This document shows positions 1,520 to 51,604 of a DNA stretch of 64,000 nucleotides, in pieces. A program made the translations under genes and the position numbers. The stretch covers positions 64,001 to 128,000 of the forward strand of contig JAPDKB010000008.1 of NCBI GenBank assembly GCA_029258795.1. Direction: 5' to 3'. The notes below the pieces were generated by a model. That model was not told the origin of the DNA. It worked only from the letters and a program-made list of their open reading frames with translations, and did no database searches. The DNA is from an archaeon. Lineage in GTDB: Archaea; EX4484-52; WAPT01. Within the stretch, counting starts at the first letter, position 1, and every line of letters begins with the position of its first letter.

Positions 1520-4500
1520 ATGCAGTATGACTTCCACAAAATCGAGAAGGAGGTAAAGGAGTACTGGGAAAAGAACAAAATTCCGGAAAGGATTGCTGAC
1601 TTCAATGCCAACCTAAAGACACGTAAAAAGAAATTCTATCTGCTTGATGGACCGCCTTATGCCAACGCCCCTCCTCACGCTGGACATGCCATGACCATAG
1701 TTTTCAAGGATCTCTGGGGTAAGTTCAAGTTCATGAACGGCTATGCTGTCTGGTTCCAGCCGGGTTTTGACTGTCACGGCCTGCCGATTGAGAATATGGT
1801 TGAGAAGAAGTTTGGGATAGGATCAAAGAAGGATATAGAGAACAAGATTGGTGTTGCCAAGTTCATTCAGATGTGTAAAGAATATGCTACTCAAAACCTG
1901 AAAGAATGGATGGAATACTACAAAGATCTTGGAGCATGGAAGGGCTGGCTCACGCCTTACTTAACTTACGAGCCATACTACATAGAGAGCATATGGTGGA
2001 CCGTCAAAAAGCTTTTCGATGAAGGGTTGATGGTTAAGGGCAAGAAGCCCATACACTGGTGCCCGAGATGCCAGACATCCATTTCAGGGTATGAGGCTAC
2101 CGACTCCTACAAAAACGTTACCGACCCCTCCATTTATGTTAAGTTCAAGGTGAAGGATAGGGATAACGAGTACCTGCTCGCATGGACCACAACACCTTGG
2201 ACGCTTCCGGCTAACGTTGCGCTTGTTGTTCATCCTGATGAGACCTACGTTAAGATTGAGGTTGATGGCGAGTATTTAATTCTCGCTGAAAAACGCCTTA
2301 AGGATGTGATGGAAAGAGCTGGCATCAAGGACTACAAGGTTATTGAGAAGTTTGAGGGTAAGAAGCTGGATGGTGTGGAGTACGAGCCATTAATGCCAGA
2401 GCTTCAGACGCAGCAGGAGGCTGCCAAGAGTGGAAAAGCGCACAGAATTGTTATGTCCGTCCCTATTCTGAAGAAGGTTGTTGCCTCCAAGATAAAAGCA
2501 AAGAAAGAGGTTGAGGAGGAAGAGGAAGGAGAAGCTTTTGGTCACATGGTTACCATGGATGCCGGTACAGGCATAGTGCACTGTGCTCCCGGCCATGGAG
2601 CAGAAGACAACAAGCTTGGTGCTTATTATGGCTTGCCAGTAATCTCGCCTGTTGATGATGAGGGCAAGTTCACAAGCGAAGCTGGTTGGCTGGAAGGAAA
2701 GTTTGTGAAGGATGCGGATAAGGAAATAATAGAGCATCTTAAGCAAAAAGGTCTGCTATTCCACGCTGAAAGGATAGTTCACAGCTATCCTCTCTGCTGG
2801 AGGTGCAAAACCCCCCTCATTTACCGCACCACAGACCAATGGTTCTTCCTCATAGACCCAATAAAGGAGATGATGCTCAAATTCAATGAAGAGACAAGAT
2901 GGCTTCCTGACTTTGCAAAGGAGCGCATGAGGAACTGGGTCAAGGACGAGGCGGACTGGTGCATATCGACGCAGAGATACTGGGGCGCGCCAATCCCAAT
3001 CTGGGAGTGTAAGAACTGCGGGCACATGATCGCTGTGGGAAGCAAGAAGGAGCTTGAGGAGAAAATGGTGAACGATGTCAAGCTTGATGACCTCCACAAG
3101 CATGTTGTGGATAAGGTTGTGCTGAAATGTGAGAAGTGTGGAGGGGAGATGAAGAGAATTCCGGACATAATAAACATCTGGGTGGAGAGCGGCGTTGCTC
3201 CATGGGCTTCGCTCGGCTATCCTTATTATGATGGCGGTCTACTCAAAAAGCTGTGGCGCGTTGATCTGGTGGATGAGTCCCAGGATCAAATAAGGGGTTG
3301 GTTCCACGCCATGCTGTTCATGTCCGCTGCCACGTTCAAGGAGAGACCATATAACACCGTTTGCATGAACGGCTGGGTGCTGGATGAAAAAGGAGAGAAG
3401 ATGAGCAAGAGCTTGGGGAACGTGATTTCAGCGGAAGAGGCATTCGAGCAGCTCGGCGCTGATGTGCTCCGCTTGTACGTTTGCTACAGCACAGCTCCGT
3501 GGGAGACACATAAGTTCAGCATGAAGGAAGCAAAGGAACTCTTCCGCTTCATGAACATAATGGTCAATCTTGTCAACTTTGTGGACATGTATGGTGTAGA
3601 TATCAATGTTGATGGCGGCATGCCCAATCTCACCCGTGTTGAGGACAGATGGCTTCTTTCGAGGCTTAACTCCATAATAAGGAAGGTTGAAAGCCACATT
3701 GAAAACTTCCACTTCCATGCAGCAGCAAGAGAGCTTGTGGAGTTCGTGATGGAGGACTTCTCCCGCCTCTATCTGAAGCTGGTAAAGGAGAGGTATGATA
3801 AAAATGAGGAAAGAGAAGCGATGGATCATGTAATATCCAAGACAATCTTTGATGTGGTGAGAATGCTCGCACCCTTCTGCCCGTACATAAGCGAGTACAT
3901 CTATCTGAAGCTGTTCAAGGATGCTGTTAAGGAGGATTCAGTACACATGTTGGAGTGGCCCGTGGCTAATGAGAAGCTGATTGATGAGAAGTTGGAAAGG
4001 GAGATGGAGCTCGTTATGAAGATTGTGGAGGAACTCAATTCAATCAGGCAGAGCAAGGGCATAAGGTTGAGGTGGCCTCTTGAAGAAGTTGTGCTCTCGT
4101 CCAACGAGATCACTGCAAGGATTGGGGATGACATCAAGGAAGTCATAAAGACGCTTGCAAACGTGAAAAAGGTTGTTGTTAAGGATGTTGAGCTGAGCTA
4201 TGCGCTGAAGCCCAGATATGATGTGATAGGGCCGAAGTTTGGAGAGAAAACAAGAGAGGTTGTTGCCCTCCTGCAGAAACAAAGGCCTGAGGAGCTTTTG
4301 AACCGGCTTGAGGAAGAGGGGGCTGTAATGGTTGGTGAGTTTGAAATAACAAAAGAGATGGTGGATGTTGATGTCAAGCTTGAAAACGTGCCTGCTGGCT
4401 ATGAAGGTGGAGTTGTTGACGGCACAGCTGTGCTTCTCAAGGTTGAGATCGCGCCTGAACTGAAGGAAGAAGGGATAGCCAGAGAGTTCATAAGAAGAGT

Positions 4501-4712: not shown

Positions 4713-4910
4713 TTAGCACACAGCAACATTTATGCCCAGCACATCCAAAAAGCTAACTATGATACTTGCGATATCACAAGCTATTCCCTGAATCTTGTCC
4801 AAAAACCCTCCTTCTTTTGTCAGGAAAATGAAAATAATCATACCTACAAACAGTGCCAGCATTATCAATCCGAACTCAGTTAATCCAAGCTCAATCCCCT
4901 TTCGTCTCAT
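4713..4910 (-). CDS. small class III signal peptide (pilin-like) protein
   Basis: MRRKG|IELGLTEF followed by hydrophobic helix. Confidence 0.7.
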   Translation of the reverse strand: MRRKGIELGLTEFGLIMLALFVGMIIFIFLTKEGGFLDKIQGIACDIASIIVSFLDVLGINVAVC

Positions 4911-4941
4911 GGTGAGTTGATGGTTCATGCTAATTCTACCT

Positions 4942-5049
4942 CTAAGGTCTTCCTAAATAATTGAAAGCTGTAGCAAAGAGCACATATAACAGCAATAGCC
5001 CGAGTAAAAGCATTAACAGAAGGCTGACCGAAAGGCCTGCTTTTTTCAT
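4942..5049 (-). CDS. 35-aa pilin-like membrane peptide (not in ORF track)
   Basis: hand translation MKKAGLSVSLLLMLLLGLLLLYVLFATAFNYLGRP*; basic N-terminus + hydrophobic helix. Confidence 0.5.
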   Translation of the reverse strand: MKKAGLSVSLLLMLLLGLLLLYVLFATAFNYLGRP

Positions 5050-5093
5050 CCTTACCACAACATATTTAAGGGAGGACAACAGATTTATAAGTT

Positions 5094-5288
5094 ATGTACT
5101 GCTCTTTAAGGAAAAGAAAAGGAGCTTCATATATAGAAATCATATTTTTGGTGTTATTGCTTGCATTCATCACATTTTTGTTTGTGGCTTTGTTCCGGCA
5201 CTGGGACATTAGCCTGGATGAAAAGGTTAAAAATGCTTTTGACACTGTTATGGCGAAAGCTCAGGAAAAGTTCGGGGTGGTGTTTTAA
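5094..5288 (+). CDS. class III signal peptide pilin-like protein
   Basis: RKRKG|ASYIE (Glu at +5) + hydrophobic helix. Confidence 0.75.
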   Translation: MYCSLRKRKGASYIEIIFLVLLLAFITFLFVALFRHWDISLDEKVKNAFDTVMAKAQEKFGVVF

Positions 5289-5480
5289 ATGGGAAGGAAG
5301 GGTATGGATAAAGTGGTGTGGATAGTTCTGAGTGTGTTATTAGCATTTGTTGTTGTTTATTTAGCTATCAAAATAACGGGTGGTAGCTTTTTTGGGTTTG
5401 AAAGCCTAGTACATAGTGGGCTCGAAGAATCAAACCAAACAATTAATGAAAGCATAGAAAATATAACAAAAGGTTGGTGA
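5289..5480 (+). CDS. class III signal peptide pilin-like protein
   Basis: MGRKG|MDKVVWIVLSVLL. Confidence 0.7.
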   Translation: MGRKGMDKVVWIVLSVLLAFVVVYLAIKITGGSFFGFESLVHSGLEESNQTINESIENITKGW

Positions 5481-5486
5481 TGTGTT

Positions 5487-5993
5487 ATGAGACCGCTGAA
5501 AAAAGGTTTCTCATTTTCTATATCCACCATAGCAGTGATTTTTCTCGTAGTGATAGTGATAGCCATCATTATTAAGTTCTATGGGGGAAGTATAGTTCCC
5601 CATCTCAATACTACTAAACTCAATATAGGTAGACTTGGTAATGTTACTACCACTATCGTTAATGAATCAACTTCCTCTTATCTCAACCCCTCAGGTGGCT
5701 CATCCAGTAGCTCATCTTATACTTTGACTCTATCGAATATGGGTGCTGGAAGCGGTAATAATTGTACCATAAACCTCAATGTCACTGATTCAAACAACAA
5801 GCCAGTTCCGAGTATAACCGTTACCGCACGGTATGACACCACATCTTCGAGCTGTACAAGCCAGAATGATGGCTCCTGTAAGATAGAAATTCCAAAACCT
5901 AGCCAAGAAGTAAACGTCTCTATCACTTGTTCTGGTTGCAATTCATTATGCATTAAAACAAACCCCTCATGTGGTAATCTGGGTGGGTGTTAA
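5487..5993 (+). CDS. pilin-like protein with Ser/Thr/Cys-rich beta (Ig-like) C-terminal domain
   Basis: LKKG|FSFSI + TM helix; Ser linker; C-terminal domain with several Cys. Confidence 0.7.
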   Translation: MRPLKKGFSFSISTIAVIFLVVIVIAIIIKFYGGSIVPHLNTTKLNIGRLGNVTTTIVNESTSSYLNPSGGSSSSSSYTLTLSNMGAGSGNNCTINLNVTDSNNKPVPSITVTARYDTTSSSCTSQNDGSCKIEIPKPSQEVNVSITCSGCNSLCIKTNPSCGNLGGC

Positions 5994-6157
5994 TGAAAAT
6001 TACCAAAAAAAGTAAGGGTTATTCTTGGCTGGAGATAATATTTTTTGTGCTGTTGCTTTCTGCATTGATATTTATTCTCATGAAATTCGGTAAAGGAGCG
6101 ATAGATAAAATATTGGGGCTTGCTGACCTCGGTTGGGAGAAAGGAGGGTTGAAATGA
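5993..6157 (+). CDS. 54-aa class III signal peptide pilin-like protein (not in ORF track)
   Basis: hand translation MKITKKSKG|YSWLEIIFFVLLLSALIFILMKFGKGAIDKILGLADLGWEKGGLK*; Glu at +5; TAATG and ATGA overlaps with neighbours. Confidence 0.7.
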   Translation: MKITKKSKGYSWLEIIFFVLLLSALIFILMKFGKGAIDKILGLADLGWEKGGLK

Positions 6158-6396
6158 ACAGGAAAGGACTGGTAGGAAGTCAGATCATGCTCATCATCTA
6201 CATAGTTATTTTTATAATCTGTTTAGCTCTTGCTTACATAATTCTTAATAAAATAGGCGTGCCCATTGTTGATACTTTGAAGAGGCAGTGGGGCTGGGTT
6301 AGCACAGTGGTCAAGACAGTGAGCTTTATTGGAAATGCCATTGATACTGTGATGAACATAGCTGGCAAGATATGGGGTTTTCTCACAGGCGGATAA
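6154..6396 (+). CDS. class III signal peptide pilin-like protein
   Basis: MNRKG|LVGSQIML + hydrophobic helix; ATGA overlap with upstream gene. Confidence 0.7.
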   Translation: MNRKGLVGSQIMLIIYIVIFIICLALAYIILNKIGVPIVDTLKRQWGWVSTVVKTVSFIGNAIDTVMNIAGKIWGFLTGG

Positions 6397-6419: not shown

Positions 6420-6824
6420 GTGGAAAGTATGGATGAGAAAGCGAGGTCGATAGAGGTTTCTGGAAATAGCATAATCATTACTCTATCTCCATCGTTGTAT
6501 TCCAAAAACGCGGTAATGCGGGCCGCTTACAGGATGCTGGGTAATTGCAGCGCCAGGGTGCTGGGAGATGGCATAAATTCATTATCCGTTGAGCTGAGAG
6601 TGCTTGATGATGATGGGAGGGTGGACAAAGAGGATTTGGTTGACGCTTTTTTCGCTGAGCTGCTTCAGGCGGAGATGGAAGAGATTAACATGCGCAAATT
6701 CGGAGATGTGAGGAAAATGCTTCTTGAACTTGCCATAAGAGGGCTTGCAGCAGGAAAAAATGCAAATGTGGGTCAAAATCAGGATAATAAAGGTGAGGTG
6801 AATGAGGAAGAAAGAATTGTTTAG
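6420..6824 (+). CDS. hxsD: HxsD-like accessory protein of radical SAM RiPP system
   Basis: SLYSKNAVMRAAY and FFAELL..EEI...GDVRKMLLELAI resemble HxsD; adjacent to HxsC/HxsB-like genes. Confidence 0.65.
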   Translation: MESMDEKARSIEVSGNSIIITLSPSLYSKNAVMRAAYRMLGNCSARVLGDGINSLSVELRVLDDDGRVDKEDLVDAFFAELLQAEMEEINMRKFGDVRKMLLELAIRGLAAGKNANVGQNQDNKGEVNEEERIV

Positions 6825-7092
6825 AAAACTCAGATCTCTTGTCAAACCACCTCAACTCAATGATGATGGGGCATTGAATGTGCTCACACTTCTTGCAATT
6901 ATAAGTGCGCTCCCTCTCCTTTCCAAGCTCGCTCACTCAGTTGTAACTCATGAATGCGTCACCAACAAACAGGAATGGAGTGAGGTGGAGGGCGAGTACA
7001 ATACTTGGCTTCATAATGAGTGGAGCAACTGGATAGAGTGGGCTGATTGGAAGGAATGGTGTGAGTGGGGAAAGTGGGGAAACGGTGGTTAG
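6802..7092 (+). CDS. putative RiPP precursor peptide with Trp-Xaa-Xaa repeat core
   Basis: GAGGTGA RBS directly upstream; 96 aa; basic N-terminus, hydrophobic segment, then W74,77,80,83,86,89,92 in exact 3-residue register. Confidence 0.85.
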   Translation: MRKKELFRKLRSLVKPPQLNDDGALNVLTLLAIISALPLLSKLAHSVVTHECVTNKQEWSEVEGEYNTWLHNEWSNWIEWADWKEWCEWGKWGNGG

Positions 7093-7096
7093 ACAG

Positions 7097-8008
7097 ATGA
7101 GACTCATGCTCAAGAAGGCTTACTGCGTGTTCGGATATCAGTGCAACAATAACTGCAGGATATGCGCGGTCAGCTCGCAGGAGAGAGCGAGAAAGGAGCG
7201 GATCGGCACGGAAGAGCTCGTAAACTTTCTTATAGGGCTCCCACGCGAAATAAGGATTGTGGAGATTTCTGGAGGGGAGCCAACAATAAGAAGTGATTTT
7301 TTCACCGTTCTTGAAAAGGTAAGCAGTGAAAAACCCCATCTGAAATATCATCTTCTCACAAACGGAAGAATGCTGTCTTCAATCACCTTTGCGGAAAAAC
7401 TTGCAGACCTCCCTGTGGATTTCATAATTACGGCTCTTCACTCCGCCACACCGGAGAGACATGACTGGATGACCAGAGCTGAAGGAAGTTACATGCAGAC
7501 CATACAGGGTGTGAGAAACGCTTTAGATATGGGGTTTCGAGTCTCCCTAAAAACAATTGTGAATAAATCTAACTACAGAGAGCTGGAAAATATAGCAACT
7601 TTTGTCTGCTCTAGGTTTGATGACATCGATTTCTTTTCTTTTCACGCGCTTGACCTGACGGGAAATGCTCTTAAACACGCTTCCGAAGTTGCCGTAAGGA
7701 TGAGTGAAACCATCGATAATCTTCTTAGGGCTGTGACCATCCTTGACTCCTCGGGAATTAGAGTCAGGATATATGGATACCCTTACTGCATGGTGTCCGA
7801 AGACCTCTGGAAATATATTGCACCACAACCAAAACTGATTTACGGATATAAATCTCCATCACTGGAAATTGTAAACCAGAAATTTGATGATAACTACGGT
7901 CTGCTCGATGTTTGCGAGGGCTGCTCGCTCAGATACAAGTGCTCGGGATTGTGGTATACTTATGTCGAGTTTTTCGGCAAAGATGAGATTGTGCCAGTAG
8001 GAGGGTGA
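7097..8008 (+). CDS. hxsC: radical SAM protein, HxsC-like
   Basis: CNNNCRIC, ISGGEPT, LLTNGR, ALHS...HD, C-terminal CEGC-x5-CSGL. Confidence 0.75.
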   Translation: MRLMLKKAYCVFGYQCNNNCRICAVSSQERARKERIGTEELVNFLIGLPREIRIVEISGGEPTIRSDFFTVLEKVSSEKPHLKYHLLTNGRMLSSITFAEKLADLPVDFIITALHSATPERHDWMTRAEGSYMQTIQGVRNALDMGFRVSLKTIVNKSNYRELENIATFVCSRFDDIDFFSFHALDLTGNALKHASEVAVRMSETIDNLLRAVTILDSSGIRVRIYGYPYCMVSEDLWKYIAPQPKLIYGYKSPSLEIVNQKFDDNYGLLDVCEGCSLRYKCSGLWYTYVEFFGKDEIVPVGG

Positions 8009-9387
8009 AGGACGTGTACCTACTCAACGATGTACTCGAAGATAAATTGGACGGGAACAGAACTCTTCTCACCACGAGGTATGGAAGCTGGGTCATACTT
8101 ACAGAGGATGATGTAAAGGCTCTGAGGTCCGGCAAGGCTGATGAGGAACTTCTTCAGAAGCTGGAAGAGGCGGGGATCATACTCACCGAGAGGAACATCA
8201 GATCAGAACTGGAAAAAATCGTCAGGAGGTTTGGATACCTTTACAATATGCCGTTTCTCAACGTTCAGATCAATCTGACCCTGAGGTGCAATCTTTTATG
8301 CAAGTATTGTCACGCAAACTCTAGTCCAAGCTCAAGGCTGGAGATGGACAGAGATATCCTGCTTGATGTCGTAAGATTCCTTGAGCGCCTGCCGAAAACC
8401 TACATTTCCCTCGAATTTCAGGGTGGAGAACCCTTTCTCAAGTTTGACCTAATGGAGGAGCTCGTCGAGAGGGTGCGGAATGAGGTCAAGGATAAAAAGG
8501 TGGTCGAGACTGTGGTGATTTCCAACGGCACCGTTATCGATAAGGATATAGCAAGGTGGGTTGCTAAAAATAACGTTTCTGTTTCCGTGTCGCTTGACGG
8601 TCCGAAGGAAATGCACGATTCTCAGCGCGTTTATCCAAATGGCAAGGGAACTTACGAAGATGTTTTGCATGCCATCACACTGCTGCGGGATGCCGGGGGT
8701 TTTCCAACTTCCACCGCGACCATCACAAAGAACACCGTTAAGCTCGGAGGTGCGGAAAGGGTGATTGAGGAGTATGTTAAGAGGGGGTTTCCATTCATCT
8801 TTTATAGACCCATCATGGATGCGGGGCGTGGGGAGGATAACGAGGAGCTTGCACTGAGAGCTGAGGAGTTCTTCGAGTTTGTTAAGGGAAGCATTGAGAA
8901 GGTTGTGCAGCTGAAGCGTGAGGGTGTTGTTTTTAGGGATAAGTTTGTCGAAAAATTCCTTCAGAATATTTTTGGAAAGGGTACGCGTTCCTATTCATGT
9001 CTGCGCGATGTGTGTGGGGCAGGAATTACGCAGCTCGTGGTGGCTCCGGATGGTTGGCTGTATCCGTGTGATGTTATGAAGGTCTTGCCGGAATTCCGGG
9101 TCGGAAGGCTCGAGAACCAATACGAGGAAGTTATGATGAATGTGCTCAACAGCATGATGGTTCTGCCGGACATCTCCGCTGAGTGTCCTTCCTGTCCCTA
9201 CATAGCGTTCTGCGGTTTCTGCAAGCGGTGGAACTACGGAATATCCCGCTCACTGCTGCCGTACCACTTCCTGAGCGAGGACTGCAAATTCAAAAAAATG
9301 TTTTTCAAGTACATATTTCAGAATCTGAAATTCTTCCGTAAAAATGTGGACTGCTTTGTGGTTGAGGAGGGAGTGAGGTATGACTAG
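8005..9387 (+). CDS. hxsB: radical SAM/SPASM peptide maturase, HxsB-like
   Basis: N-terminal LLTTRYGSWVIL extension, CNLLCKYC, EFQGGEP, SLDGP, SPASM Cys set CGAG..YPC..CPSC..FC..C..DC. Confidence 0.8.
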   Translation: MKDVYLLNDVLEDKLDGNRTLLTTRYGSWVILTEDDVKALRSGKADEELLQKLEEAGIILTERNIRSELEKIVRRFGYLYNMPFLNVQINLTLRCNLLCKYCHANSSPSSRLEMDRDILLDVVRFLERLPKTYISLEFQGGEPFLKFDLMEELVERVRNEVKDKKVVETVVISNGTVIDKDIARWVAKNNVSVSVSLDGPKEMHDSQRVYPNGKGTYEDVLHAITLLRDAGGFPTSTATITKNTVKLGGAERVIEEYVKRGFPFIFYRPIMDAGRGEDNEELALRAEEFFEFVKGSIEKVVQLKREGVVFRDKFVEKFLQNIFGKGTRSYSCLRDVCGAGITQLVVAPDGWLYPCDVMKVLPEFRVGRLENQYEEVMMNVLNSMMVLPDISAECPSCPYIAFCGFCKRWNYGISRSLLPYHFLSEDCKFKKMFFKYIFQNLKFFRKNVDCFVVEEGVRYD

Positions 9388-10174
9388 CTGCTTTCGCTAT
9401 TTTTATCTGGTTTCCGCCCTCATCATGATTATCCTTGCGTTTCACATAACCAAAAGTTTTGTTCTCACATCCGCTCTTGTGTTCGCTTCCTTTTTTGGAG
9501 CAACCCTTCTTGCCATCGGGAAGGAATATGGATGGAGTGTTGTCTTTTCTGCATTTCACACAGCTATGAAAACACTCTCTCTTCTTATGCTTTCATTCAG
9601 TTTGCTGTTTTCCCTCTGCAAACAGGCGGTGGATATTAATTCCTTTTTATTGTTCATCCTGCTACTTTTCTCTTCGGTGAGTGCAGGAGCGATTGTGAAG
9701 CGTGCAGAAAATGTGTTGAGGTTCTGGCATGCGCTGCTACTTCTTGGATTTGCGCTTTCCGTTTACTTCCACTTTTACTTCATTTTTCTCAAAATTTCGG
9801 CCTTGCTCTTCATGATTTACGCAACCCCTTCCCTTACAACCCTACAGGTTGAGGTCTCTGAAAAGATTGTGGGAGAGTTCCCCGCAGAGATTGTGAAGGT
9901 CAGCAAGAAAGGTGTGAAAAAGGAAAGAATTTCTGTTTCTAAGATCAGGCTGGCACGCGCGGCCTTTTGCATCAGTAAGGGAGAGGTTATTGCCCAGCCC
10001 TTCAGAAGGCTGGATGATGCAGCGGTGAAGCTGTTGAAGAAAGCAGGGGTTAAGGAAATAAGGATTCAGAGGAAGGTGCTCCCGCAAAATATCTTTTTTC
10101 TTTCGATTCTCCTGTTCTTCCTTCTTATCCTTCTGGTAGCTCTACTGAATACGTTCCGAATGACTGTGGTGTGA
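9380..10174 (+). CDS. multi-pass membrane protein with prepilin-peptidase-like C-terminal domain, catalytic Asp motifs not seen
   Basis: about 6 TM segments; C-terminal part aligns by eye to the C-terminus of the A24 peptidase at 32660-33598. Confidence 0.6.
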   Translation: MTSCFRYFYLVSALIMIILAFHITKSFVLTSALVFASFFGATLLAIGKEYGWSVVFSAFHTAMKTLSLLMLSFSLLFSLCKQAVDINSFLLFILLLFSSVSAGAIVKRAENVLRFWHALLLLGFALSVYFHFYFIFLKISALLFMIYATPSLTTLQVEVSEKIVGEFPAEIVKVSKKGVKKERISVSKIRLARAAFCISKGEVIAQPFRRLDDAAVKLLKKAGVKEIRIQRKVLPQNIFFLSILLFFLLILLVALLNTFRMTVV

Positions 10175-12353
10175 TGGCTGTATTGGAAATTATATCGTCA
10201 GGCACACACGTCTCTGTTCCTCCGTTGCATTTGTTGTCATCAACATTCACGTTCACGATGAATCGCAGAACTACTGGAGTCCACTTATTCTGCGAGACAT
10301 CGAAGAGCTTGTATTTGGAATCGATAATTTCAACCAGTATTTTCAGATCCTTGAAGATGTAACGGTGGTAGTATTTCATAGTGCATTTGTGCCAATAATT
10401 CCATGCGATTTTGCACTTCCACTTTGGACAGCAATATTTATAACAATCCACATGAGGGGGTGGTTTCTGGATTAGCACCTGCCTTTCCACATGAATCAGG
10501 TTCTTATCTGTCCCTTCAATCTCCAGACCGCATCCAGAAGTGATGGTTTCGGTTACGGTTTTTTTTGCAAGCGTGTCTTTGTTTTCCACGAGTTCATTGA
10601 TTAACTCGTCTATTCGTGAAATGTAAGAATTATAGCTGCTATTTACGGTTAAGCAGAAGTCATCTATACTAGTTGTGTGTATACTTGAACATGCTGATTG
10701 AATGGAGTTGCACAAATCGTAAATATAGGGGGAATTGCAATATTCTTCAAGTTTTGGTGTGGTATCGTGAAACACAGAGCTAGGCAAATGGCCTGAACAA
10801 ATTACATTTACTCCCTCTTTTAGCGAATTACACCTAGAAATAAGATCTGAGCAATCTTCGTCCGTGACTGTTCCGGCTGCGCATATCGTGTCTATTTCTC
10901 TTCCCAGATCTTCCCTATCCGGGTTATAACCCATGAAATCGTTTATTGCGTTAAGTGTGTCATCATCCGTTCTATCAAGGGTGATGCTTCCCGCTTTACT
11001 CGGTGTTGCACTGTCACAGCACGGCTTCTTGTTGTCGTTCACACTCTCCCAAACATGCTTATCATCAAGATAGATGAGCTTCCATCCTATTCCTTCTGCA
11101 GAGCTCGCATTGAGATCGGCTTCAAGCTCGCTGAGAGCGCTTGTTATGACATTTTCAAAATCTGCTTCACCATATGTTGGTGTCTTATCCTCAGGACAAT
11201 CGTTACAAGTTAAAGGTCTGCAAACTTCCTCGCTTTCCTCTGTATAGTAATCCTGTAGCTTTTCATTGGACTTTTCAAATATCTTCCTTATCAACCATTC
11301 CTCAATGTTATCCACAAAGGTGTTGCCATAGTTCACCATCAATCCAAGCCTGGTGGAAACGTTCGTTTCGGTAAACATGTTGGAATGCAGCATGACCGTG
11401 ACCTTACCCTCTCTAGAAACTCTCGTTACGTTCATCCCTTCACTCATCCACACACTTCCGTGGATAGTATTTGTTGATGGGTCAAAAGTCACGTTGGGTT
11501 TTGATCCTTTGAAAGTCATACCATACATGTTGGTGGGTGTCCCTCTATAGTACTGTTCAAGATACCTTTCCATTATTTCCTGAATCATATCTCTACCACA
11601 ACCTACAGCGGAAAACTTGTTGGAGTCCTTATGCTTGTATATGGTCGCCACGATTCCGCGAAGCTTAACAGTATTGTTTCTGGATGCTTTGATTTCTATT
11701 CGATTTCCTTCTATAGAATCCCCTTTCAGGAAGTAAACACCCGTGTGATTTGCATTCATTAGTATTGTGCCTCCTGATTTTATAGTCACTGTCGCGTTTT
11801 TGAGGAAGTAGAGAGTTAGCATAACCTCTCCGACTCTGAACCCGGGATCCACGCTGAACTCTATAGTGGTGGGCACTCTTCCAATCCACCCATTGAAATC
11901 CTTGAAATATGAGATGGGTTTGTAAACCTGCATCCCTGTTCCCTCCGCTTGAACCCAGTAGAGCACATACTCTCCATCAACATCTTCTATCCTCATACAA
12001 CCCCTATCCACACCCTCAAAATTCACTCTCATGTTCAGAACGTACTTTCGATTGCCGCTTTCATAAGTTATACCGTTTTCAGCTATGAGCTTGGACGTTA
12101 TCATTCCATGCGATGCGTAGTCAAGAACTGTTTTCATCATCGCAAATATTAGCGCTGGCTGTTCCTGACTTTCCTTTATCATCGATATCTCGAATTTCCC
12201 TTTCTCTATGAAATTTCTCAGCACTTCACCCTCTATTATTTGCATCGCCTCAAAAGTTCTGGTTAGCATAACCCAAGAGGCAAAAGCTACCCACACCATC
12301 AGGAGTAACGCTACTGCCAAAACCGATGCAAATCCCTTATCCCTATCTTTCAT
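10125..12353 (-). CDS. large Cys-rich class III signal peptide surface protein (adhesin/minor pilin-like)
   Basis: MKDRDKG|FASVLAVALLL; 742 aa; many Cys in C-terminal half. Confidence 0.7.
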   Translation of the reverse strand: MKDRDKGFASVLAVALLLMVWVAFASWVMLTRTFEAMQIIEGEVLRNFIEKGKFEISMIKESQEQPALIFAMMKTVLDYASHGMITSKLIAENGITYESGNRKYVLNMRVNFEGVDRGCMRIEDVDGEYVLYWVQAEGTGMQVYKPISYFKDFNGWIGRVPTTIEFSVDPGFRVGEVMLTLYFLKNATVTIKSGGTILMNANHTGVYFLKGDSIEGNRIEIKASRNNTVKLRGIVATIYKHKDSNKFSAVGCGRDMIQEIMERYLEQYYRGTPTNMYGMTFKGSKPNVTFDPSTNTIHGSVWMSEGMNVTRVSREGKVTVMLHSNMFTETNVSTRLGLMVNYGNTFVDNIEEWLIRKIFEKSNEKLQDYYTEESEEVCRPLTCNDCPEDKTPTYGEADFENVITSALSELEADLNASSAEGIGWKLIYLDDKHVWESVNDNKKPCCDSATPSKAGSITLDRTDDDTLNAINDFMGYNPDREDLGREIDTICAAGTVTDEDCSDLISRCNSLKEGVNVICSGHLPSSVFHDTTPKLEEYCNSPYIYDLCNSIQSACSSIHTTSIDDFCLTVNSSYNSYISRIDELINELVENKDTLAKKTVTETITSGCGLEIEGTDKNLIHVERQVLIQKPPPHVDCYKYCCPKWKCKIAWNYWHKCTMKYYHRYIFKDLKILVEIIDSKYKLFDVSQNKWTPVVLRFIVNVNVDDNKCNGGTETCVPDDIISNTAITPQSFGTYSVELPEG

Positions 12354-13042
12354 TTGAACACCTCTGCTGTTGCAATCCCTTCAGGTAACTCTTTGTTATT
12401 GGCATTAACAAATAAGAGTGTGTAATTTACTGCGGGATAATATTCTTCAGATGGTGTAGGGATAAACACTTCCTCCTTGAAAAGATACTTACCCCCAACA
12501 CACTTACCAACATCGTAAGGGTAACGGAGATGGTGCTGCCATGTAGGTGTATTCACAAACTTGTTATAAAAAACTCTCTGGGGAAAGTGTCTCTCCCCAC
12601 TGCCAACTATAGAGGGTAGAGAGGGTGGGGGTGTGCATTCATCCGGCCCTTGCGGAGATGGGAGCATTAGCTTTACTGTGTTGTTCAGATTGACTTTACC
12701 CTTAACACCACCATAATCAATATACACTTCACTCCATCCAGGAATGAAATGATTAACTTGAGATAAATCGTGCTGCGCTCCGTAAGTGTAAATGCCCAGC
12801 AGTTCATCAATCTGGAGTGTGCTGCGCTCACCCGAGTCAAGTGTTGGTTTTACATTGAAGTATGTTAAATAGGTGGATGCGTTTCTCTCCGTAGCGTAAT
12901 ACTGAATTACAGCCCCGATTGACTTGAAATTCTTCAGCCACGGCATGAAAATGGAGATGACTAGTGTTAATGTTATCAGGAGCACGAATACAGGTAGCTC
13001 CAATCCAAGCGCCTTATTTCTGTATTTTTTAAACATCGTCAC
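12350..13042 (-). CDS. class III signal peptide protein
   Basis: YRNKA|LGLELPVFVLL + TM helix. Confidence 0.65.
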   Translation of the reverse strand: MTMFKKYRNKALGLELPVFVLLITLTLVISIFMPWLKNFKSIGAVIQYYATERNASTYLTYFNVKPTLDSGERSTLQIDELLGIYTYGAQHDLSQVNHFIPGWSEVYIDYGGVKGKVNLNNTVKLMLPSPQGPDECTPPPSLPSIVGSGERHFPQRVFYNKFVNTPTWQHHLRYPYDVGKCVGGKYLFKEEVFIPTPSEEYYPAVNYTLLFVNANNKELPEGIATAEVFK

Positions 13043-13518
13043 CGCCCTTCAAGAGTTACGTTCAGGTATGTGAATTCCACGATTACTGGATATCCGTCAT
13101 CTGTGGATAGATGATACTTCATGGTAGCGTTTAGTTTTTTCCCTGCCACGTTTTTGAAGGTTTTTCTGGAAAGTACATTATTAAAGTCTGGAGTGTAGAT
13201 TGTTATGTTGAGAATGTATTCAATATCATCTCCAAGACAGGGTAGTGGTGCGCCATCGGGTGTGCTTTCTATAAACGTTCGGTTTAAAATGAACCACCTT
13301 CTATTGTTTAGAGAGTCGTTCGCAAGCAGGCAGCTATCGGTGATTATCTTGTTGGCGTAAGCTTCCATTAATCTGGCTCTGGCTAGCTCATCTATCGTTT
13401 TTGCGTTCATACCGGATTCAGCTTTATATACTAAGAGAGCTGCTGATGCGATTATGATGAGCACCATGGCACTAAATACCTGGGTGTATGGGAGCCCTCC
13501 TTTCATTGCTTTCAACAT
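13039..13518 (-). CDS. class III signal peptide protein
   Basis: AMKG|GLPYTQVFSAMVLIII. Confidence 0.6.
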   Translation of the reverse strand: MLKAMKGGLPYTQVFSAMVLIIIASAALLVYKAESGMNAKTIDELARARLMEAYANKIITDSCLLANDSLNNRRWFILNRTFIESTPDGAPLPCLGDDIEYILNITIYTPDFNNVLSRKTFKNVAGKKLNATMKYHLSTDDGYPVIVEFTYLNVTLEGR

Positions 13519-13997
13519 ATATTCTCACCTATATTACAGCAGGATTTATTCGATGCATCGCAGATCATTATATATGGAGTGCAGTTCAAAATCTTCTTGA
13601 CCACGCACAACTCTTCAGCATTGGTTACTGCGGAGCTAACCACATTGGATATGTTGTGACGAATATGATAGGTTATGTTCCTTGAAGGGGTGTGAAGCAC
13701 AACCACCAACTTGGAATCTGTCAAATTGACTGTAAATTTTGGGGTTATTGATGTGTATATACTGTATCCTTGTTCCGAAGAGGAAATTTCCAAGAGGAGT
13801 GCGTAGATGGTGGAAGCTGTGTTTTTGGCTATGATTCTCGAATCCATAAGTATTTCTCTGTAAGAATTCAAGTAATATGATGCGACCAAGAACGCAATAA
13901 TTACCATTATGCCCGTAACTACTAACATGGTCTGCGTCTCGTCCTCCATTGATAGAAATTTGTGTTTCAACCCATATAAAGCTTGAGAAGTAGGCAT
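13512..13997 (-). CDS. membrane-anchored minor pilin-like protein
   Basis: single N-terminal TM helix, C-terminal Cys cluster, overlapping gene run. Confidence 0.55.
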   Translation of the reverse strand: MPTSQALYGLKHKFLSMEDETQTMLVVTGIMVIIAFLVASYYLNSYREILMDSRIIAKNTASTIYALLLEISSSEQGYSIYTSITPKFTVNLTDSKLVVVLHTPSRNITYHIRHNISNVVSSAVTNAEELCVVKKILNCTPYIMICDASNKSCCNIGENIC

Positions 13998-31320: not shown

Positions 31321-32682
31321 ATGGACCTCCCTAAGGTTGAAAAGCCAACTCCTGTTCAAATTAGGAACTACTATTCCCAGCCAGAACTCATGGAGTTCAT
31401 GTTTGAAGTTGCAAAGCAGAGGGAGTTCGTGCCCGTGTATGACGGAAAATATGGCAAGAGGCCTGACATGCTGAACATGCCCGGAGATCTTAAAACCATG
31501 ATTCTAAGTGGCGCTACATCCTTCCACATGTCTGTGGAGAGGTGGCACAACCCTCTTAACCTCAGCAACGAGATGAGGCCGGATGAGATTGAGAAGCTGC
31601 GTGCCGGCTGGGACCTGATTCTTGATATTGACTGCAATGAGGGCTACATTTATGCGAGAGAAGCTGCGTTGATTCTTGTTAAGGCGTTGAAAGCGCACGG
31701 AATAAAGAATGTTTTCGTTAAGTTCTCGGGCAGCAGGGGTTTTCATGTTGCCGTGCCGTTCGAGTCCCTTCCAAAAGAGGTGGAGGGCAAGCCCATCCAG
31801 TCGTTTTATCCGGAACTGCTGCAAGGAATAGCAGCTTATCTCAAACACCTGATAAAGGAAAAGCTTGGCCAGGAGCTTTTGCGCAAGTATCCGGAGCTTT
31901 ACGAAAAGATTGCTGTTGATGATGAGAGGGTTGATCCTTACAAAATCATGGAGATAGAGGAAAACTGGTCGGTCAGGCATCTGTTCAGGGCTCCTTACTC
32001 CTTAAACGAGAAGACGTGGTTGGTTAGCACCCCCCTAAGAGTTGAGGAAATTCCATCGTTTAAAGCCGAGATGGCAGCAATTGAAAGAGTTAAGGTTGGA
32101 AGCGCGGGATTTCTGACGAGATGGGAGGAGGGTGAAGCGGAAAACCTTATATTTGAGGTGCTGGATTTCATGAGCAGGAGGGTGGATGAAAAAAGATTGA
32201 GTGTTTCCTCCGAGGTTGAGAGAGGTGCTGGCTTCAGAGAGGTGAGGAGTGACGCTTACCTTAAAAACAGAGTTGATGAAAGGTTTTTCCCTCCATGCAT
32301 AAAGAAAGGGCTTGAAGGGCTTGAGGATGGTAGAAAGAGGTTTCTGTTCGTGCTGATTAACTTTCTAAAATTGATGAGGTGGAAGCCAGAGGAGATAAAG
32401 AGTTTGGTGTGGGAGTGGAACAAAAGGAACAAGGAGCCGCTCCGCGATTCATATGTCAGGGGTCAGCTAAAATATGCTTTCAAGAAGCAGATGGCTTACA
32501 TCCCTCCGAACTGCGATAACAAGGATTATTATCCAGACATAAAAATTTGCGAGAAGGACTCATTGTGTGAGAAGATAAGAAATCCCTTATCCTATACTCT
32601 CACCAGATACACGCTCTACCTCAAGAAGTCGGGAAAAAAGAGAGGGAGGAAAATCGGAACTAGAACAGGTAAAAGAAAATGA
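31321..32682 (+). CDS. priS: fused DNA primase (PriS catalytic domain + PriL/PriX-type C-terminal domain)
   Basis: WDLILDID, KFSGSRGFH, RAPYS then FPPCI, GRKR, PPNC, NPLSY. Confidence 0.88.
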   Translation: MDLPKVEKPTPVQIRNYYSQPELMEFMFEVAKQREFVPVYDGKYGKRPDMLNMPGDLKTMILSGATSFHMSVERWHNPLNLSNEMRPDEIEKLRAGWDLILDIDCNEGYIYAREAALILVKALKAHGIKNVFVKFSGSRGFHVAVPFESLPKEVEGKPIQSFYPELLQGIAAYLKHLIKEKLGQELLRKYPELYEKIAVDDERVDPYKIMEIEENWSVRHLFRAPYSLNEKTWLVSTPLRVEEIPSFKAEMAAIERVKVGSAGFLTRWEEGEAENLIFEVLDFMSRRVDEKRLSVSSEVERGAGFREVRSDAYLKNRVDERFFPPCIKKGLEGLEDGRKRFLFVLINFLKLMRWKPEEIKSLVWEWNKRNKEPLRDSYVRGQLKYAFKKQMAYIPPNCDNKDYYPDIKICEKDSLCEKIRNPLSYTLTRYTLYLKKSGKKRGRKIGTRTGKRK

Positions 32683-33598
32683 ACCCGTATTTTGCCGTTA
32701 CCAGCAATGATAAAAAGAAGGTTGGAGCGTAGCGCACACCTTCCTTTATCTTGATTTTACCCTTTCGCTCCGTCTTCAGCTTTCCGGATTTCCATGCTTT
32801 CTTTATGAAGTCCACATCCTGTTTTGTCAGACCCACGAAAAGCTTTGAGCTGAACCTTTTCGTTGGAGTTTTGACATCTTCAGCGAGCACATCCCCCTCC
32901 TTCAACTTTTGGATGCTTATGTATCTCATAAAAACGTTTCTATCAGCATGTCTGGCGAAGTTAAGCAGGATGAAGAGCAGGAACATGATCGCGGTGTATT
33001 TAGCTCCCACTAAAACCATCTCCATTGCGATGCTCTCGTTGAGTGGAGAGAGGTAAAGATACGCTGTGCAGCCCATCACCAGAGGTATGGAAGCCACCAC
33101 ACCTTTAATCCGCATCCCTTCAAAGCTGGCTTTCAGCAGCTCACTTTTCTTCTCAGCATATAAAAGCGCGTAAATCAGGGTAAAGAGGATAGCATATATT
33201 GCTCCTACCACAAAACAGTTTATGAGAAATGCGACGGGGTAGAAAAGTAAGTGATTGACAGCCATCAAATTCGGGTGGAAGAAGCTCAGCGGTTTTGGTA
33301 CTGCAAATCCTATCGATGCTAAAATCAATACGTCAGCTTCACCCCACTGTCCTGTGGAGAAAAGCGCGTATCCCAGCACGAGGAAAATTGTGGCTGTGGC
33401 AAAAGCTATGAATATGTCATCCCACTGGGAGAAAACCACACCCCTGCCAAGATAAATCAGAAGTGCTCCCACAAAACCCCCAAGCGGAACAAAATCTGGG
33501 ATTTCGGTGGTTTTGATATCATATATTGCTCCTGCAAGGGATGTTAGACATGCTATCAGGAAAAGCGTGTGGTCTGAGAGGATGAGCGAGACATCCAT
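32660..33598 (-). CDS. prepilin/preflagellin peptidase (A24)
   Basis: YDIKTTEIPD and GQWGEAD catalytic Asp motifs; EGDVL; RYAP. Confidence 0.88.
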   Translation of the reverse strand: MDVSLILSDHTLFLIACLTSLAGAIYDIKTTEIPDFVPLGGFVGALLIYLGRGVVFSQWDDIFIAFATATIFLVLGYALFSTGQWGEADVLILASIGFAVPKPLSFFHPNLMAVNHLLFYPVAFLINCFVVGAIYAILFTLIYALLYAEKKSELLKASFEGMRIKGVVASIPLVMGCTAYLYLSPLNESIAMEMVLVGAKYTAIMFLLFILLNFARHADRNVFMRYISIQKLKEGDVLAEDVKTPTKRFSSKLFVGLTKQDVDFIKKAWKSGKLKTERKGKIKIKEGVRYAPTFFLSLLVTAKYGFIFFYLF

Positions 33599-49948: not shown

Positions 49949-50544
49949 AGGTTTATAGGGTGGCTAGGGATTACCTTCTCAAGAGCATAGAGAAAAATCT
50001 GCGCAATGTGGATGAGGGCGCTGTCAACAAGTTTATAGAGCTGCTTGAGAAGGCGAAGACGGAGGGGAGGCGTGTCTTTCTCATCGGAGCTGGGAGAAGC
50101 GGTCTGGTGGCAAAGGCAGTGGGGATGAGACTGGTGCATCTGGATATTGAGGCTTATGTTGTTGGGGAGACCATCACAAGACCCCTGCACAAAGGAGATA
50201 TCGTCATTGCGATATCGGGATCAGGGGAGACGACTTCTGTTGCTTCAGTTGTTAAGAAGGCAAGGGAGCTTGGGGGTGTTGTGGTTGCGATAACCTCAAA
50301 GCCATCATCCACCATAGGAAAACTTGCGGACATCATGATAAAGCTTGAAAGTAAAAGGCCGGAGGATGATGAATCCAACTATCTTGTGAGGCAGATAGAG
50401 GAAAGGAAAGCTCCGATCTCACCGCTTGGAACTCTTTTTGAGCTTTCAGCACTCATTTTCCTTGACAGCATGATAAGCGAGCTTGGGGCCAGACTTGAGA
50501 TGGATGAGGAGGATATGAGAAAGAGGCACACGAACATAGAGTAA
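49945..50544 (+). CDS. phi: 6-phospho-3-hexuloisomerase
   Basis: GAGRSG, VGET, ISGSGET, PLGTLFE, RHTNIE. Confidence 0.92.
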   Translation: MKVYRVARDYLLKSIEKNLRNVDEGAVNKFIELLEKAKTEGRRVFLIGAGRSGLVAKAVGMRLVHLDIEAYVVGETITRPLHKGDIVIAISGSGETTSVASVVKKARELGGVVVAITSKPSSTIGKLADIMIKLESKRPEDDESNYLVRQIEERKAPISPLGTLFELSALIFLDSMISELGARLEMDEEDMRKRHTNIE

Positions 50545-50668
50545 CGGTTTAAGCTTTTACCCTAGTCAGTTCTGTAAATTTAATTGTTGGTAAAAACATC
50601 AAAAAAGCTTAGGTAAAAAGAAGGTAACTGTTCCTTCTGCAGATATTGATTGGGTTGAAGAATTTTAT

Positions 50669-50893
50669 TTGAAAAATGGTTATAAACCTGTCCAATTCTT
50701 AGTAAAAGTAAAAAAGGAAAAGCTTTCAAAAGATTATAAAAATAAAGGATATAAAATCCTAAATGAAAGAGCAGAAGGAAAATACAAAATATTTTACATA
50801 AACATAAGAAAGTATGATCCAAAATTAAGAGAAAGATTAAAGATATTATTTAATGCTGATGAAGTAATTTATATAATGGAAAAGAAGTTATAA
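50669..50893 (+). CDS. small AT-rich hypothetical protein
   Basis: 74-aa Lys-rich ORF in low-GC island. Confidence 0.4.
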   Translation: MKNGYKPVQFLVKVKKEKLSKDYKNKGYKILNERAEGKYKIFYINIRKYDPKLRERLKILFNADEVIYIMEKKL

Positions 50894-50966
50894 AATGTTC
50901 CTTCCACCAGAGCATCTGCAACTCTGCGCAAAATCAAAGATTTTGCTTGCCTCACTCCGTTCGGTC

Positions 50967-51061
50967 GTTGAACAAGCGTTATCAGGTTCGCCGGACGCTC
51001 ACGCTGGCTCACCCAAATTTGTGCCAAAGGCACAAACTTCTGATAACGCTATATGTTAAGT
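50967..51061 (-). mobile_element. attC-like integron cassette recombination site
   Basis: minus strand ACTTAAC ... GTTCAAC with inner inverted repeat GCGTTATCAG/CTGATAACGC and hairpin TTTGTGCC/GGCACAAA, 21 nt after the cassette gene stop. Confidence 0.7.
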
Positions 51062-51082
51062 CCAATCAGCCTCGGGGCGCAT

Positions 51083-51604
51083 TTAAAGAATGTTGAATTT
51101 AAAAAGAACAACAATAATTAAAAAAATTAAATTGAATAACATAAAGTAATTTTCTGAAATTCCTTTAATATTTTTGTCTTTAATTCTTTGCATCCATTTC
51201 TTTGAGTTTTCAGATTTAATGAATAAATTGTCTGGGATAAAAATTCCCAAACCTTCCTTTTTCTTTATCTTCAAAAATAGAGCAAAAGGATAAGTTTCAA
51301 AGACACATAAATAATCTAAGAAAATATGACTCGCATATGGAATTAAAACTAATATAAAGAAAATCTTATCTATCATACCAAGAATAAACGAAAGAAGTAA
51401 GCCAATTATAATCAAACCAAATGGCTCTTGAATCCATGTTCTTCTATGATACCATGGAGCTTTTTTGTTGAATTTATGATCATAATCTATTAAGATGCCA
51501 AATATTAAAGAAAACAAAATTGTGAGCAGTATATTGACTGAACTGAATGGAATAAGTAGTAAGCATACACCAATAGCAAAAATGAAATGGTTTAGCCAAT
51601 TCAT
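51083..51604 (-). CDS. membrane metal-dependent hydrolase (YdjM-like), cassette-borne
   Basis: N-terminal H, IDYDH, HRR, SHIFLD; very AT-rich. Confidence 0.75.
   Translation of the reverse strand: MNWLNHFIFAIGVCLLLIPFSSVNILLTILFSLIFGILIDYDHKFNKKAPWYHRRTWIQEPFGLIIIGLLLSFILGMIDKIFFILVLIPYASHIFLDYLCVFETYPFALFLKIKKKEGLGIFIPDNLFIKSENSKKWMQRIKDKNIKGISENYFMLFNLIFLIIVVLFKFNIL

Follow-up and report, generated by a model that had tools for sequence, protein, structure and literature searches.

Introduction

The His-Xaa-Ser (HxS) system of Escherichia coli (HXS, proteins HxsA to HxsD) blocks phage DNA entry (Li et al., Nat Commun 2026, PMC13128918), and proteins resembling HxsB, HxsC and HxsD are encoded by the operon described here, which lies at positions 6420-10174 of a 64,000-nucleotide stretch of archaeal DNA (assembly GCA_029258795.1, contig JAPDKB010000008.1, positions 64,001 to 128,000 of the forward strand; hereafter the window). 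As set out in the text of that report, HxsA combines a signal peptide with a peptidoglycan-binding domain, HxsB, HxsC and HxsD are all required for HxsA N-terminal processing and periplasmic accumulation, and HxsC binds HxsD. A shift of +8 Da was located on one SHRSS motif; its chemistry is described there as unsolved and the reaction as not reconstituted. The same text gives the gene order D-B-C-A for 99.6% of HXS systems, places 99.7% of them in Pseudomonadota, and names two HxsD motifs, LYW and LLNDYxLRE. Aromatic-X2-X3 motifs are outlined in PMC11851443 as the substrates of characterised three-residue Trp cross-linking radical S-adenosylmethionine (SAM) enzymes, and the radical SAM enzyme DarE is described in PMC9055067 as making Trp-Trp and Trp-Lys cross-links.

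An original prediction, made from the letters of the window, paired Hxs-type machinery with a Trp-Xaa-Xaa repeat peptide in a DPANN-like archaeon and did not recognise the combination as described. This is borne out in that no paper linking Hxs enzymes with Trp-rich precursors was found in the literature searched and neither NCBIfam nor Pfam holds a family for the Trp peptide; the text of PMC13128918 contains no Trp-type target and the word 'tryptophan' 0 times, its supplements being a place where rare gene orders or non-HxS variants may be listed. The Trp-rich Hxs variant is conserved and apparently undescribed. Our reading of the locus as a whole, to which we give a probability of roughly 45%, is that of a lineage-specific Hxs offshoot in which the HxS effector has been replaced by a Trp-rich acidic peptide with a role in the cell envelope.

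Like HXS (TIGR03979/03978/03977/03976), the locus encodes together a small HxsD-like protein, a non-SPASM HxsC-like radical SAM enzyme and an HxsB-like radical SAM/SPASM enzyme, and its repeat-bearing target has a hydrophobic N-terminal export segment. Loci of this kind are termed W-type here, as opposed to HxS-type loci with HxS repeats. Whereas the HXS target has basic HxS repeats, the W-type target has Trp repeats, an acidic core and no peptidoglycan-binding domain; the gene order is D-A-C-B rather than the D-B-C-A described for HXS; an A24-like pseudo-peptidase and an orphan protein of 742 amino acids (aa) are added; the host is archaeal; and the HxsB-like protein falls outside the HxS clade. 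The HxsA4/HxsC4 variants of DPANN archaea (NF038313, NF038332) are closer in host: the phylum of the window and DPANN phyla near it both contain them. Their targets are likewise short (95-150 aa), with a leader having a basic N-terminus, an acidic patch, Gly and a hydrophobic stretch, and an A24-type peptidase homologue likewise stands beside the locus, although theirs, where aligned at full length, keep the Asp motifs and the W-type one does not. They differ further in having HxS repeats, an HxsB that passes TIGR03978 and an HxsC4-like second radical SAM enzyme.

Triceptide radical SAM/SPASM systems (WprB, WgkB, YhhB) share with the W-type loci a precursor that has a leader and repeated aromatic-X2-X3 units, as well as a SPASM maturase and a small accessory protein, and the W-x-(N/D) preference of the W-type family fits the motif logic outlined in PMC11851443. 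The W-type loci differ in their second radical SAM enzyme, their hydrophobic export segment and a maturase outside the WgkB and YhhB families. DarE and DynA are radical SAM/SPASM enzymes that cross-link Trp side chains, and the W-type members with period-2 W-x-W runs (loci L116, L120, L122 and L129) recall Trp-to-Trp links; daropeptide and dynobactin systems are unlike the present one in their single enzyme, short heptapeptide-type core and bacterial hosts.

Results and discussion

A conserved Trp-rich peptide is encoded within an Hxs-like operon

The five tightly coupled genes of the original prediction are all present as open reading frames (ORFs) on the + strand, in the predicted order and with overlapping ends. 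They are listed below together with the convergent gene that follows them.

6420-6824, + strand: HxsD-like small protein, 134 aa from GTG 6420 (likely start ATG 6429); TIGR03976, 33.2 bits
6802-7092, + strand: Trp-rich precursor or effector peptide, 96 aa; no Pfam or NCBIfam family
7021-7083, + strand: seven W-x-x units of strict period 3 (aa 74-94), the sole (W..)4+ run in the window
7061-8008, + strand: HxsC-like radical SAM enzyme, 315 aa; CNNNCRIC and C-terminal CxxCx5C (likely start ATG 7097)
8005-9387, + strand: HxsB-like radical SAM/SPASM enzyme, 460 aa; CNLLCKYC plus 8 conserved auxiliary Cys
9380-10174, + strand: multi-pass membrane protein, 264 aa, an A24 homologue without the two Asp motifs (putative pseudo-peptidase)
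10125-12353, - strand: 742-aa orphan protein with a class III signal-like start, convergent, with a 50-base overlap with the operon end

The true start of the HxsD-like gene is probably ATG 6429, after a Shine-Dalgarno-like GAGGTGG, and that of the HxsC-like gene probably ATG 7097, preceded by GGTGGT. A purine-rich GGTGAGGTGA stretch lies directly 5' of the ATG of the 96-aa peptide at 6802, and the gene for this peptide is also called in the window's own assembly (P0121). The host genome is 1.17 Mb and 96% complete. Its phylum is represented in the collection by 42 species genomes of about 1 Mb each, all of one order, and includes an Aenigmatarchaeota-labelled metagenome-assembled genome of that order, in agreement with the predicted DPANN-like host.

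The peptide consists of a basic N-terminal leader (aa 1-22), Gly23, a hydrophobic segment (aa 24-43), Cys52 and a Trp-rich core (aa 56-96) that is acidic (nine Asp or Glu, three Lys or Arg); its C-terminal end is KQEWSEVEGEYNTWLHNEWSNWIEWADWKEWCEWGKWGNGG. Nine Trp are present, at residues 59, 69, 74, 77, 80, 83, 86, 89 and 92. The seven between residues 74 and 92 keep a strict period of 3, and 5e-8 such runs are expected by chance at the window's six-frame Trp frequency. The third residues of the seven W-x-x units are N, E, D, E, E, K and N, and the underlying DNA is not tandem-repetitive except for a 19-base stretch at 7064-7082.

Conservation was assessed by fetching the surroundings of 34 HxsB-like matches and locating homologues of the five window proteins in them (L-numbers denote fetched loci, G-numbers genomes, and f1-f8 families of the host's phylum). 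Sixteen distinct loci, the window included, carry an ORF of 95-116 aa with a Trp-rich C-terminus directly upstream of the HxsC-like gene, so that the proposed scan of hxsB/hxsC neighbourhoods did recover Trp-repeat ORFs at homologous loci. In an alignment of the 16 distinct homologues (A2), M1, G23, C52, W69 and W74 are invariant, and the consensus runs from a basic start, MSxxDKxKKIRK, through Gly, a hydrophobic stretch of about 20 residues and Cys to the Trp-rich part. When a hidden Markov model (HMM) of A2 was run against 115 sources (114 fetched loci and the window's first 16 kb), its matches were confined to loci of the host's phylum. Whole-genome searches with the precursor model matched 19 of the 42 genomes of this phylum and 0/616 in two other DPANN phyla (0/401 sampled genomes of the phylum of L004 and 0/215 of that of L002). 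Homologues from the same genus, found by tblastn at 51% identity (E 8e-21), keep 9/9 Trp as against 13/32 non-Trp core positions (n=2). A word-indexed search of 5.8 billion proteins returned 25 clusters of the Trp peptide, all named 'hypothetical protein', and a full HMMER pass over 1.84 billion representatives gave 18 matches to its model. The Trp-rich ORF is a real conserved gene, belonging to a small, coherent, unannotated family, and its predicted partnership with the enzymes holds across the 16 loci and 19 genomes.

The 100-aa protein P0158 matches the precursor profile weakly (E 6.6e-4); it has eight C-terminal W-x-N units and a different, Arg-rich signal-like N-terminus, and its best curated match, HaaA at 12.7 bits, is not significant. 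P0158 was excluded from the family counts and may represent an unrelated Trp-repeat family elsewhere. Some W-type precursor and locus sequences are identical (L115 = L117 = L118 and L122 = L123; genomes G028, G003 and G007). The genomes concerned fall in different families, G028 in f6 and G003 in f2, which points to a mixed bin or to sharing in the very recent past; among f6 genomes, G028 alone has a W-type module.

The possibility that the ORF is an antisense shadow of an HxS repeat was ruled out: the other strand of the window has no HxS run, and the x positions of the Trp repeat vary. An (H..)4+ run is absent from the window. At L008, by comparison, a W-L-P repeat ORF (4909-5202, - strand) is merely an antisense frame of an HxS-repeat gene, a caution for scans for Trp repeats near Hxs enzymes. 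It could also be argued that the Trp-rich ORF arose by chance or is some unrelated small gene, and that the enzymes act on something else, since its link to them is not experimental, the enzymes are divergent, and four loci (L132, L133, L134 and L136) have Hxs-like enzyme genes with no recognisable precursor nearby. Against this stand the position of the ORF, kept in 16/16 loci, the conservation of its leader and Trp residues, its restriction to the enzyme lineage without HxS precursors, and the minute chance expectation of the Trp run, which together make this explanation very improbable. Judged by its conserved sequence and position, the peptide is very probably the substrate of the neighbouring enzymes.

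The three enzyme-related proteins are divergent relatives of the Hxs families

The best NCBIfam family of each of the three proteins is an Hxs model, as had been guessed, but the window proteins score below all three curated equivalog cut-offs: 33.2 bits against 50 for HxsD (TIGR03976), 177.4 against 267.9 for HxsC (TIGR03977) and 265.5 against 370 for HxsB (TIGR03978). Other W-type proteins behave in the same way. The HxsD-like proteins of L121 and L113 score 42.9 and 38.1 bits, the HxsC-like proteins of L113 and L121 176.2 and 167.6, and five further HxsB-like proteins 250-323, so that 0/6 pass the HxsB cut-off. The 300.2 bits of the HxsC-like protein of L119 arise merely as the sum of two stretches of a fused double protein. 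The assignment to Hxs-type machinery is thus upheld by the best-matching families and by the tree described below, at the level of relatives under the cut-offs.

HxsD-like homologues were located in 13 of the 16 distinct W-type loci. At the places aligned with LYW and LLNDYxLRE, the window protein reads LYS and FFAELLQAEMEE, and L23, Y24, F74, E77, L78 and E84 do not vary across 11 W-type proteins; a search of the HxsD-like profile against the PDB found no relative (best E 1.3). The HxsD-like proteins at L126 (3799-4497, - strand) and L128 (1029-1691, + strand) have a Cys-rich C-terminal extension of about 90 residues with CxxCxxxC, which could be a metal- or cluster-binding add-on. Both of these loci also have two separate HxsC-like genes, and in four others two HxsC-like radical SAM domains are fused into proteins of 587-611 aa (L119, 2133-3968; L124, 2215-3978; L125, 391-2154; L127, oriented, 2212-3978). 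In the three of these that belong to f5 (L124, L125 and L127), the fusion is present and an HxsD-like gene was undetected in the fetched stretch.

The radical SAM model PF04055 matches the HxsC-like window protein at 74.3 bits and the HxsB-like protein at 67.9 bits. In 13 W-type HxsB-like proteins the CxxxCxxC motif (C95/C99/C102) and eight further Cys are invariant, which we read as a full SPASM domain; the predicted SPASM cysteines are therefore in place, while the Pfam SPASM model scores 16.6 bits on the window protein and does not reach its cut-off of 21.5. The next best curated matches of the HxsB-like protein are to three peptide maturases, PapB, CcpM and DynA, and to anaerobic sulfatase maturase; among solved structures, its family profile is closest to 5wgg (E 4.7e-44) and to 4k37, an anaerobic sulfatase maturase. 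By these similarities the HxsB-like enzyme is of the peptide-modifying kind. It lies outside the cyclophane families tested, scoring 79.8 against a cut-off of 445 for YhhB (NF041707), 77.9 against 650 for WgkB (NF050035) and 118.7 against 450 for DynA. Generic viperin-model matches of PADLOC-DB 2.0.0 to the two radical SAM enzymes were set aside as uninformative because this library dates from 2023, before HXS was described.

W-type and HxS-type systems divide one phylum

An HxsB-like gene is present in 28 of the 42 genomes of the host's phylum (E <= 1e-20). In five of the genomes (G011, G012, G025, G027 and G031), HxsD and HxsB are followed by a short HxS-repeat protein. Four such HxS-type precursors were scanned, and they match HxsA4 (NF038313) at 39-61 bits, one reaching the cut-off of 55, as well as HxsA3, whereas ten W-type precursors scanned gave no match to the HxsA models TIGR03979, NF038296, NF038309 and NF038313 at E up to 1-10. 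The enzymes divide similarly: HxS-type archaeal HxsB proteins pass TIGR03978 in 4/4 cases (403-442 bits); HxS-type HxsD proteins pass TIGR03976 (54.3 and 55.0 bits) and W-type ones do not (33-43); and the second radical SAM enzyme is HxsC4-like in HxS-type loci and nearest to classical HxsC in W-type loci. The W-type precursor is absent from all five genomes with HxS-type precursors, and G028, which may be a mixed bin, is the one case in which the HxS type occurs together with a W-type precursor.

The tree covers 73 HxsB-like proteins and takes its root from 8 other SPASM maturases, retained as outgroup from the distant rows of loci L041-L080, of which 22 were dropped. All 28 HxS-associated HxsB proteins, bacterial and archaeal, fall in one clade of 49 rows (Shimodaira-Hasegawa-like approximate likelihood ratio 100). 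The 16 W-lineage rows lie outside this clade; the Trp ORF accompanies 14, and the remaining 2 are at contig ends. A single clade for these 16 rows was not rejected (approximately unbiased test, p 0.114), leaving one clade or a basal grade. In a profile-profile comparison (hhalign), the W-type and HxS-type leaders align at E 8e-5 with a probability of 61%, which suggests that the two kinds of precursor are homologous in the leader and different in the core.

The four f6 loci named above (L132, L133, L134 and L136) have HxsB-like and HxsC-like genes and neither an HxS nor a Trp-rich ORF nearby. An HxsD-like gene and an HxsD-related ORF of 85-89 aa are also present at L132, L133 and L136, and a second, convergent HxsC-like gene at L133, L134 and L136.

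Spacing of the Trp residues and the case for a released peptide

The repeated aromatic-X2-X3 core motif that marks triceptide precursors is present in the window peptide. The Trp-Xaa-Xaa repeat of the original prediction stands for the host's genus and some relatives, but other members space their Trp by 2 or 5. Over 47 distinct cores, the gaps between successive Trp are 2 (103 times), 3 (106), 5 (45), 1 (23) and 4 (27). Period-3 cores occur in the window's genus, in L119 and in the group of L124, L125 and L127, W-x-W runs in L116, L120, L122 and L129, and WWDH-like units in L113, L126 and L128. Asn or Asp occupies the third position of the W-x2-x3-W units in 81/106 cases and the second in 11/106, against a background of 24%, these counts coming from related and hence not independent sequences. 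Such a position-specific pattern would be expected of an aromatic-X2-X3 recognition unit. Since the W-type enzymes lie outside the characterised cyclophane families, this likeness in motif bears on the working mode and not on family membership.

These features could be taken to indicate a diffusible RiPP (a ribosomally synthesised peptide that is modified post-translationally) of triceptide-like or daropeptide-like kind, whose multiply cross-linked Trp core, once freed of the leader, would leave the cell to serve as an antibiotic or a signal. The seven W-x-x units of the window peptide, the family-wide W-[S/C/G]-[N/D] preference and the relationship of the SPASM enzyme to peptide maturases are consistent with this explanation, as are the two differently patterned paralogous loci in each of G003 and G013, which resemble the situation in diversifying RiPP families, and the Trp-Trp and Trp-Lys links made by DarE according to PMC9055067. 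However, the module has no protease or ABC (ATP-binding cassette) exporter gene, a hydrophobic segment of about 20 residues separates leader and core, the enzymes score far under the cut-offs of characterised cyclophane-forming or ether-forming families, the module is accompanied by a pseudo-peptidase in the membrane and by a large surface protein, and the homologous bacterial system, as its report describes it, yields a retained protein effector and no secreted small molecule (PMC13128918). We regard a diffusible product as unlikely, chiefly because of the hydrophobic segment and the missing protease and exporter. From its segment for export or anchoring, the peptide is probably exported or held in the membrane, and it may work as an effector in the envelope instead of being a free natural product.

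The fifth gene, the 742-aa protein and the case for a surface structure

The fifth gene had been predicted to encode a membrane protein; its product is indeed multi-pass and, more exactly, appears to be a homologue of the archaeal A24 prepilin peptidases that lacks the catalytic Asp motifs and looks catalytically dead. Homologues come after the HxsB-like gene in most W-type loci, and the family is present in 20 of the 42 genomes, namely all 19 with the precursor plus G008. Seven of ten family members match PF06819 (Arc_PepC; best E 1.7e-9), none of the ten matches PF01478 at E up to 1, and the window protein has no NCBIfam or Pfam match. The archaeal A24 proteins with the Arc_PepC domain are GXGD-type prepilin/preflagellin peptidases. 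Like these, the fifth-gene proteins have the C-terminal Arc_PepC region and align over the later membrane helices, and their family profile matches the canonical A24 peptidase encoded elsewhere in the window at E 5e-5 over 81 C-terminal columns (hhalign), the window's own copy being alignable there through this profile only; unlike them, they have no PF01478 match, no N-terminal Asp segment and a Ser or Thr at the second Asp. A role as the active, dedicated leader peptidase was ruled out because both Asp motifs are missing.

The canonical peptidase (32660-33598, - strand; 312 aa) matches PF01478 at 36.3 bits, with a weak Arc_PepC match, and is the genome's only PF01478 match. It is a candidate for cutting the nearby class III-like signals, and perhaps also the Trp peptide. 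True A24-type genes adjoin HxsD in the HxS-type DPANN loci L002 (663-1733), L005 (200-832), L008 (1762-2907), L138 (11-754) and L141 (3101-4369), directly upstream in the first three, and the neighbours that could be aligned over their full length (L002, L008 and L141) keep both Asp motifs. With an A24 homologue in W-type loci and A24 genes beside HxS-type loci, archaeal Hxs systems seem tied to prepilin-peptidase homologues. We know of no description of this association.

The 742-aa protein begins with a basic, Gly, hydrophobic sequence of class III signal-like character. It adjoins the operon in 12 of the 16 loci and occurs in 21 of the 42 genomes, among them all 19 with the precursor. It has no Pfam family and no significant relative in the PDB, where its sole match (E 0.058) was rejected. 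Runs of small ORFs flank the operon at 4713-6396 and 12350-13997, several of them with basic-Gly-hydrophobic N-termini that are pilin-like or class III signal-like.

Such surroundings raise the alternative that the peptide is a structural or adhesive surface component, pilin-like and with a class III-type signal, which is cut at or held by its Gly and displayed with the 742-aa protein, attaching a probably host-dependent archaeon to other cells. In its favour, invariant Gly23 stands directly before the hydrophobic helix, the dedicated partner is a homologue of the A24 prepilin peptidases, the flanking small ORFs and the 742-aa protein in the host's genus share the basic-Gly-hydrophobic start, and the module looks vertically inherited, with a constant gene order across families. 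On the other hand, the residue two before the Gly is T/S/D/E, as opposed to K/R in the pilin-like ORFs of the window, Ala-x-Ala-like sites past the hydrophobic stretch fit ordinary signal peptidase equally well, the partner peptidase homologue is without catalytic residues, and no gene for an assembly ATPase or platform was found by Pfam among the adjacent ORFs scanned, which were not all of the neighbouring ORFs. A structural or adhesive role is kept in play by the acidity of the core, the constancy of the gene order and the pilin-like neighbourhood, though we think it improbable.

Proposed course and role

In the reading that we favour, a lineage-specific Hxs offshoot acting at the envelope, we infer every step of the following course. 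The 96-aa peptide would be made with a basic leader resembling the archaeal HxsA4-type leader, and recognition of this leader, in the cytoplasm, would fall to the HxsD-like/HxsC-like pair and to the HxsB-like enzyme. The HxsD-like protein would probably form a complex with the HxsC-like one, as HxsD and HxsC do in E. coli, and the two, with the HxsB-like enzyme, would act on the core. The likeliest reaction would be a radical hydrogen abstraction by which Trp rings become cross-linked to neighbouring side chains, most plausibly those two residues away, in three-residue W-x-(N/D/E/K) units; that the cross-link is of the cyclophane type, as in the poly-cyclophane product of the original prediction, is a reasonable but tentative suggestion. 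The hydrophobic segment after the invariant Gly would then take the peptide to or through the membrane, with the catalytically dead prepilin-peptidase homologue serving as membrane partner, and the product would finish in the envelope, in the company of the 742-aa surface protein that co-occurs with the module. Most likely it would do there what HxsA does in bacteria and act as an effector against viruses or DNA entering the cell, here through aromatic or hydrophobic contacts. A barrier of this kind is favoured among the roles because W-type and HxS-type loci are distributed in complementary fashion and the system is homologous to HXS, although the antiviral role, drawn by analogy, is itself rather doubtful.

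A number of observations weigh against this reading. The acidic core means that the electrostatic DNA-binding model proposed for HxsA cannot apply, so that aromatic or hydrophobic contacts are needed, and the canonical HXS chemistry from which one would extrapolate is itself given as unsolved (+8 Da on one motif; PMC13128918). All three Hxs-type proteins fall under their curated equivalog cut-offs, and in 3 of the 16 loci (L124, L125 and L127) no HxsD-like gene was found in the stretch fetched. The non-uniform Trp spacing (2, 3 and 5) implies that a single three-residue rule may fail for some members. The window's own membrane protein has no Arc_PepC match, and in the joint alignment the membrane proteins lack the N-terminal first-Asp segment and have Ser or Thr at the second Asp. 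Co-occurrence of the module genes rests on related genomes, many of them 57-90% complete, and tracks clades (f1, f2, f5 and f8 as against f3, f4, f6 and f7), so that its independence is overstated. The operon sits among housekeeping genes with a gene order that is stable across families, unlike a typical mobile defence island. Finally, no RNA sequencing runs containing the region were found.

The presence of the module in 19 of 42 genomes of about 1 Mb indicates that it likely matters to the cell, in defence or in host contact. Canonical HXS has since been shown to be antiphage, with an exported protein effector, as the text of PMC13128918 reports. Relative to the original prediction, the dead A24 homologue, the co-occurring 742-aa orphan, the variable Trp spacing and the third-residue Asn/Asp preference are newly added here. 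With the peptide as predicted substrate, the substrate range of the Hxs family would be extended from His/Ser to Trp, and a sister enzyme lineage working on a spectroscopically convenient Trp-rich core would offer a second route into the unsolved HxsB/HxsC chemistry. The tie of archaeal Hxs systems to prepilin-peptidase homologues suggests how effectors may be processed or exported in archaea. In its most far-reaching form, which we consider a long shot, the locus would be a six-gene, phylum-specific envelope module with no described counterpart, in which two radical SAM enzymes weld a ladder of Trp side chains, a dead prepilin peptidase hands the peptide over and the 742-aa protein acts as partner; it would then form either the first barrier of HXS type in archaea, stopping viruses or DNA from entering by non-electrostatic means, or a new attachment structure of host-dependent DPANN archaea.

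Other features of the region

The neighbouring gene for a 230-aa protein (12350-13042) is present in 3 of the 42 genomes and confined to the genus. Six sequencing runs that contain the region are DNA, come from three studies and are labelled hydrothermal vent metagenome where an organism is given. The G+C content dips to 0.372 at 50001-52000, compared with 0.41-0.49 in the rest of the window.

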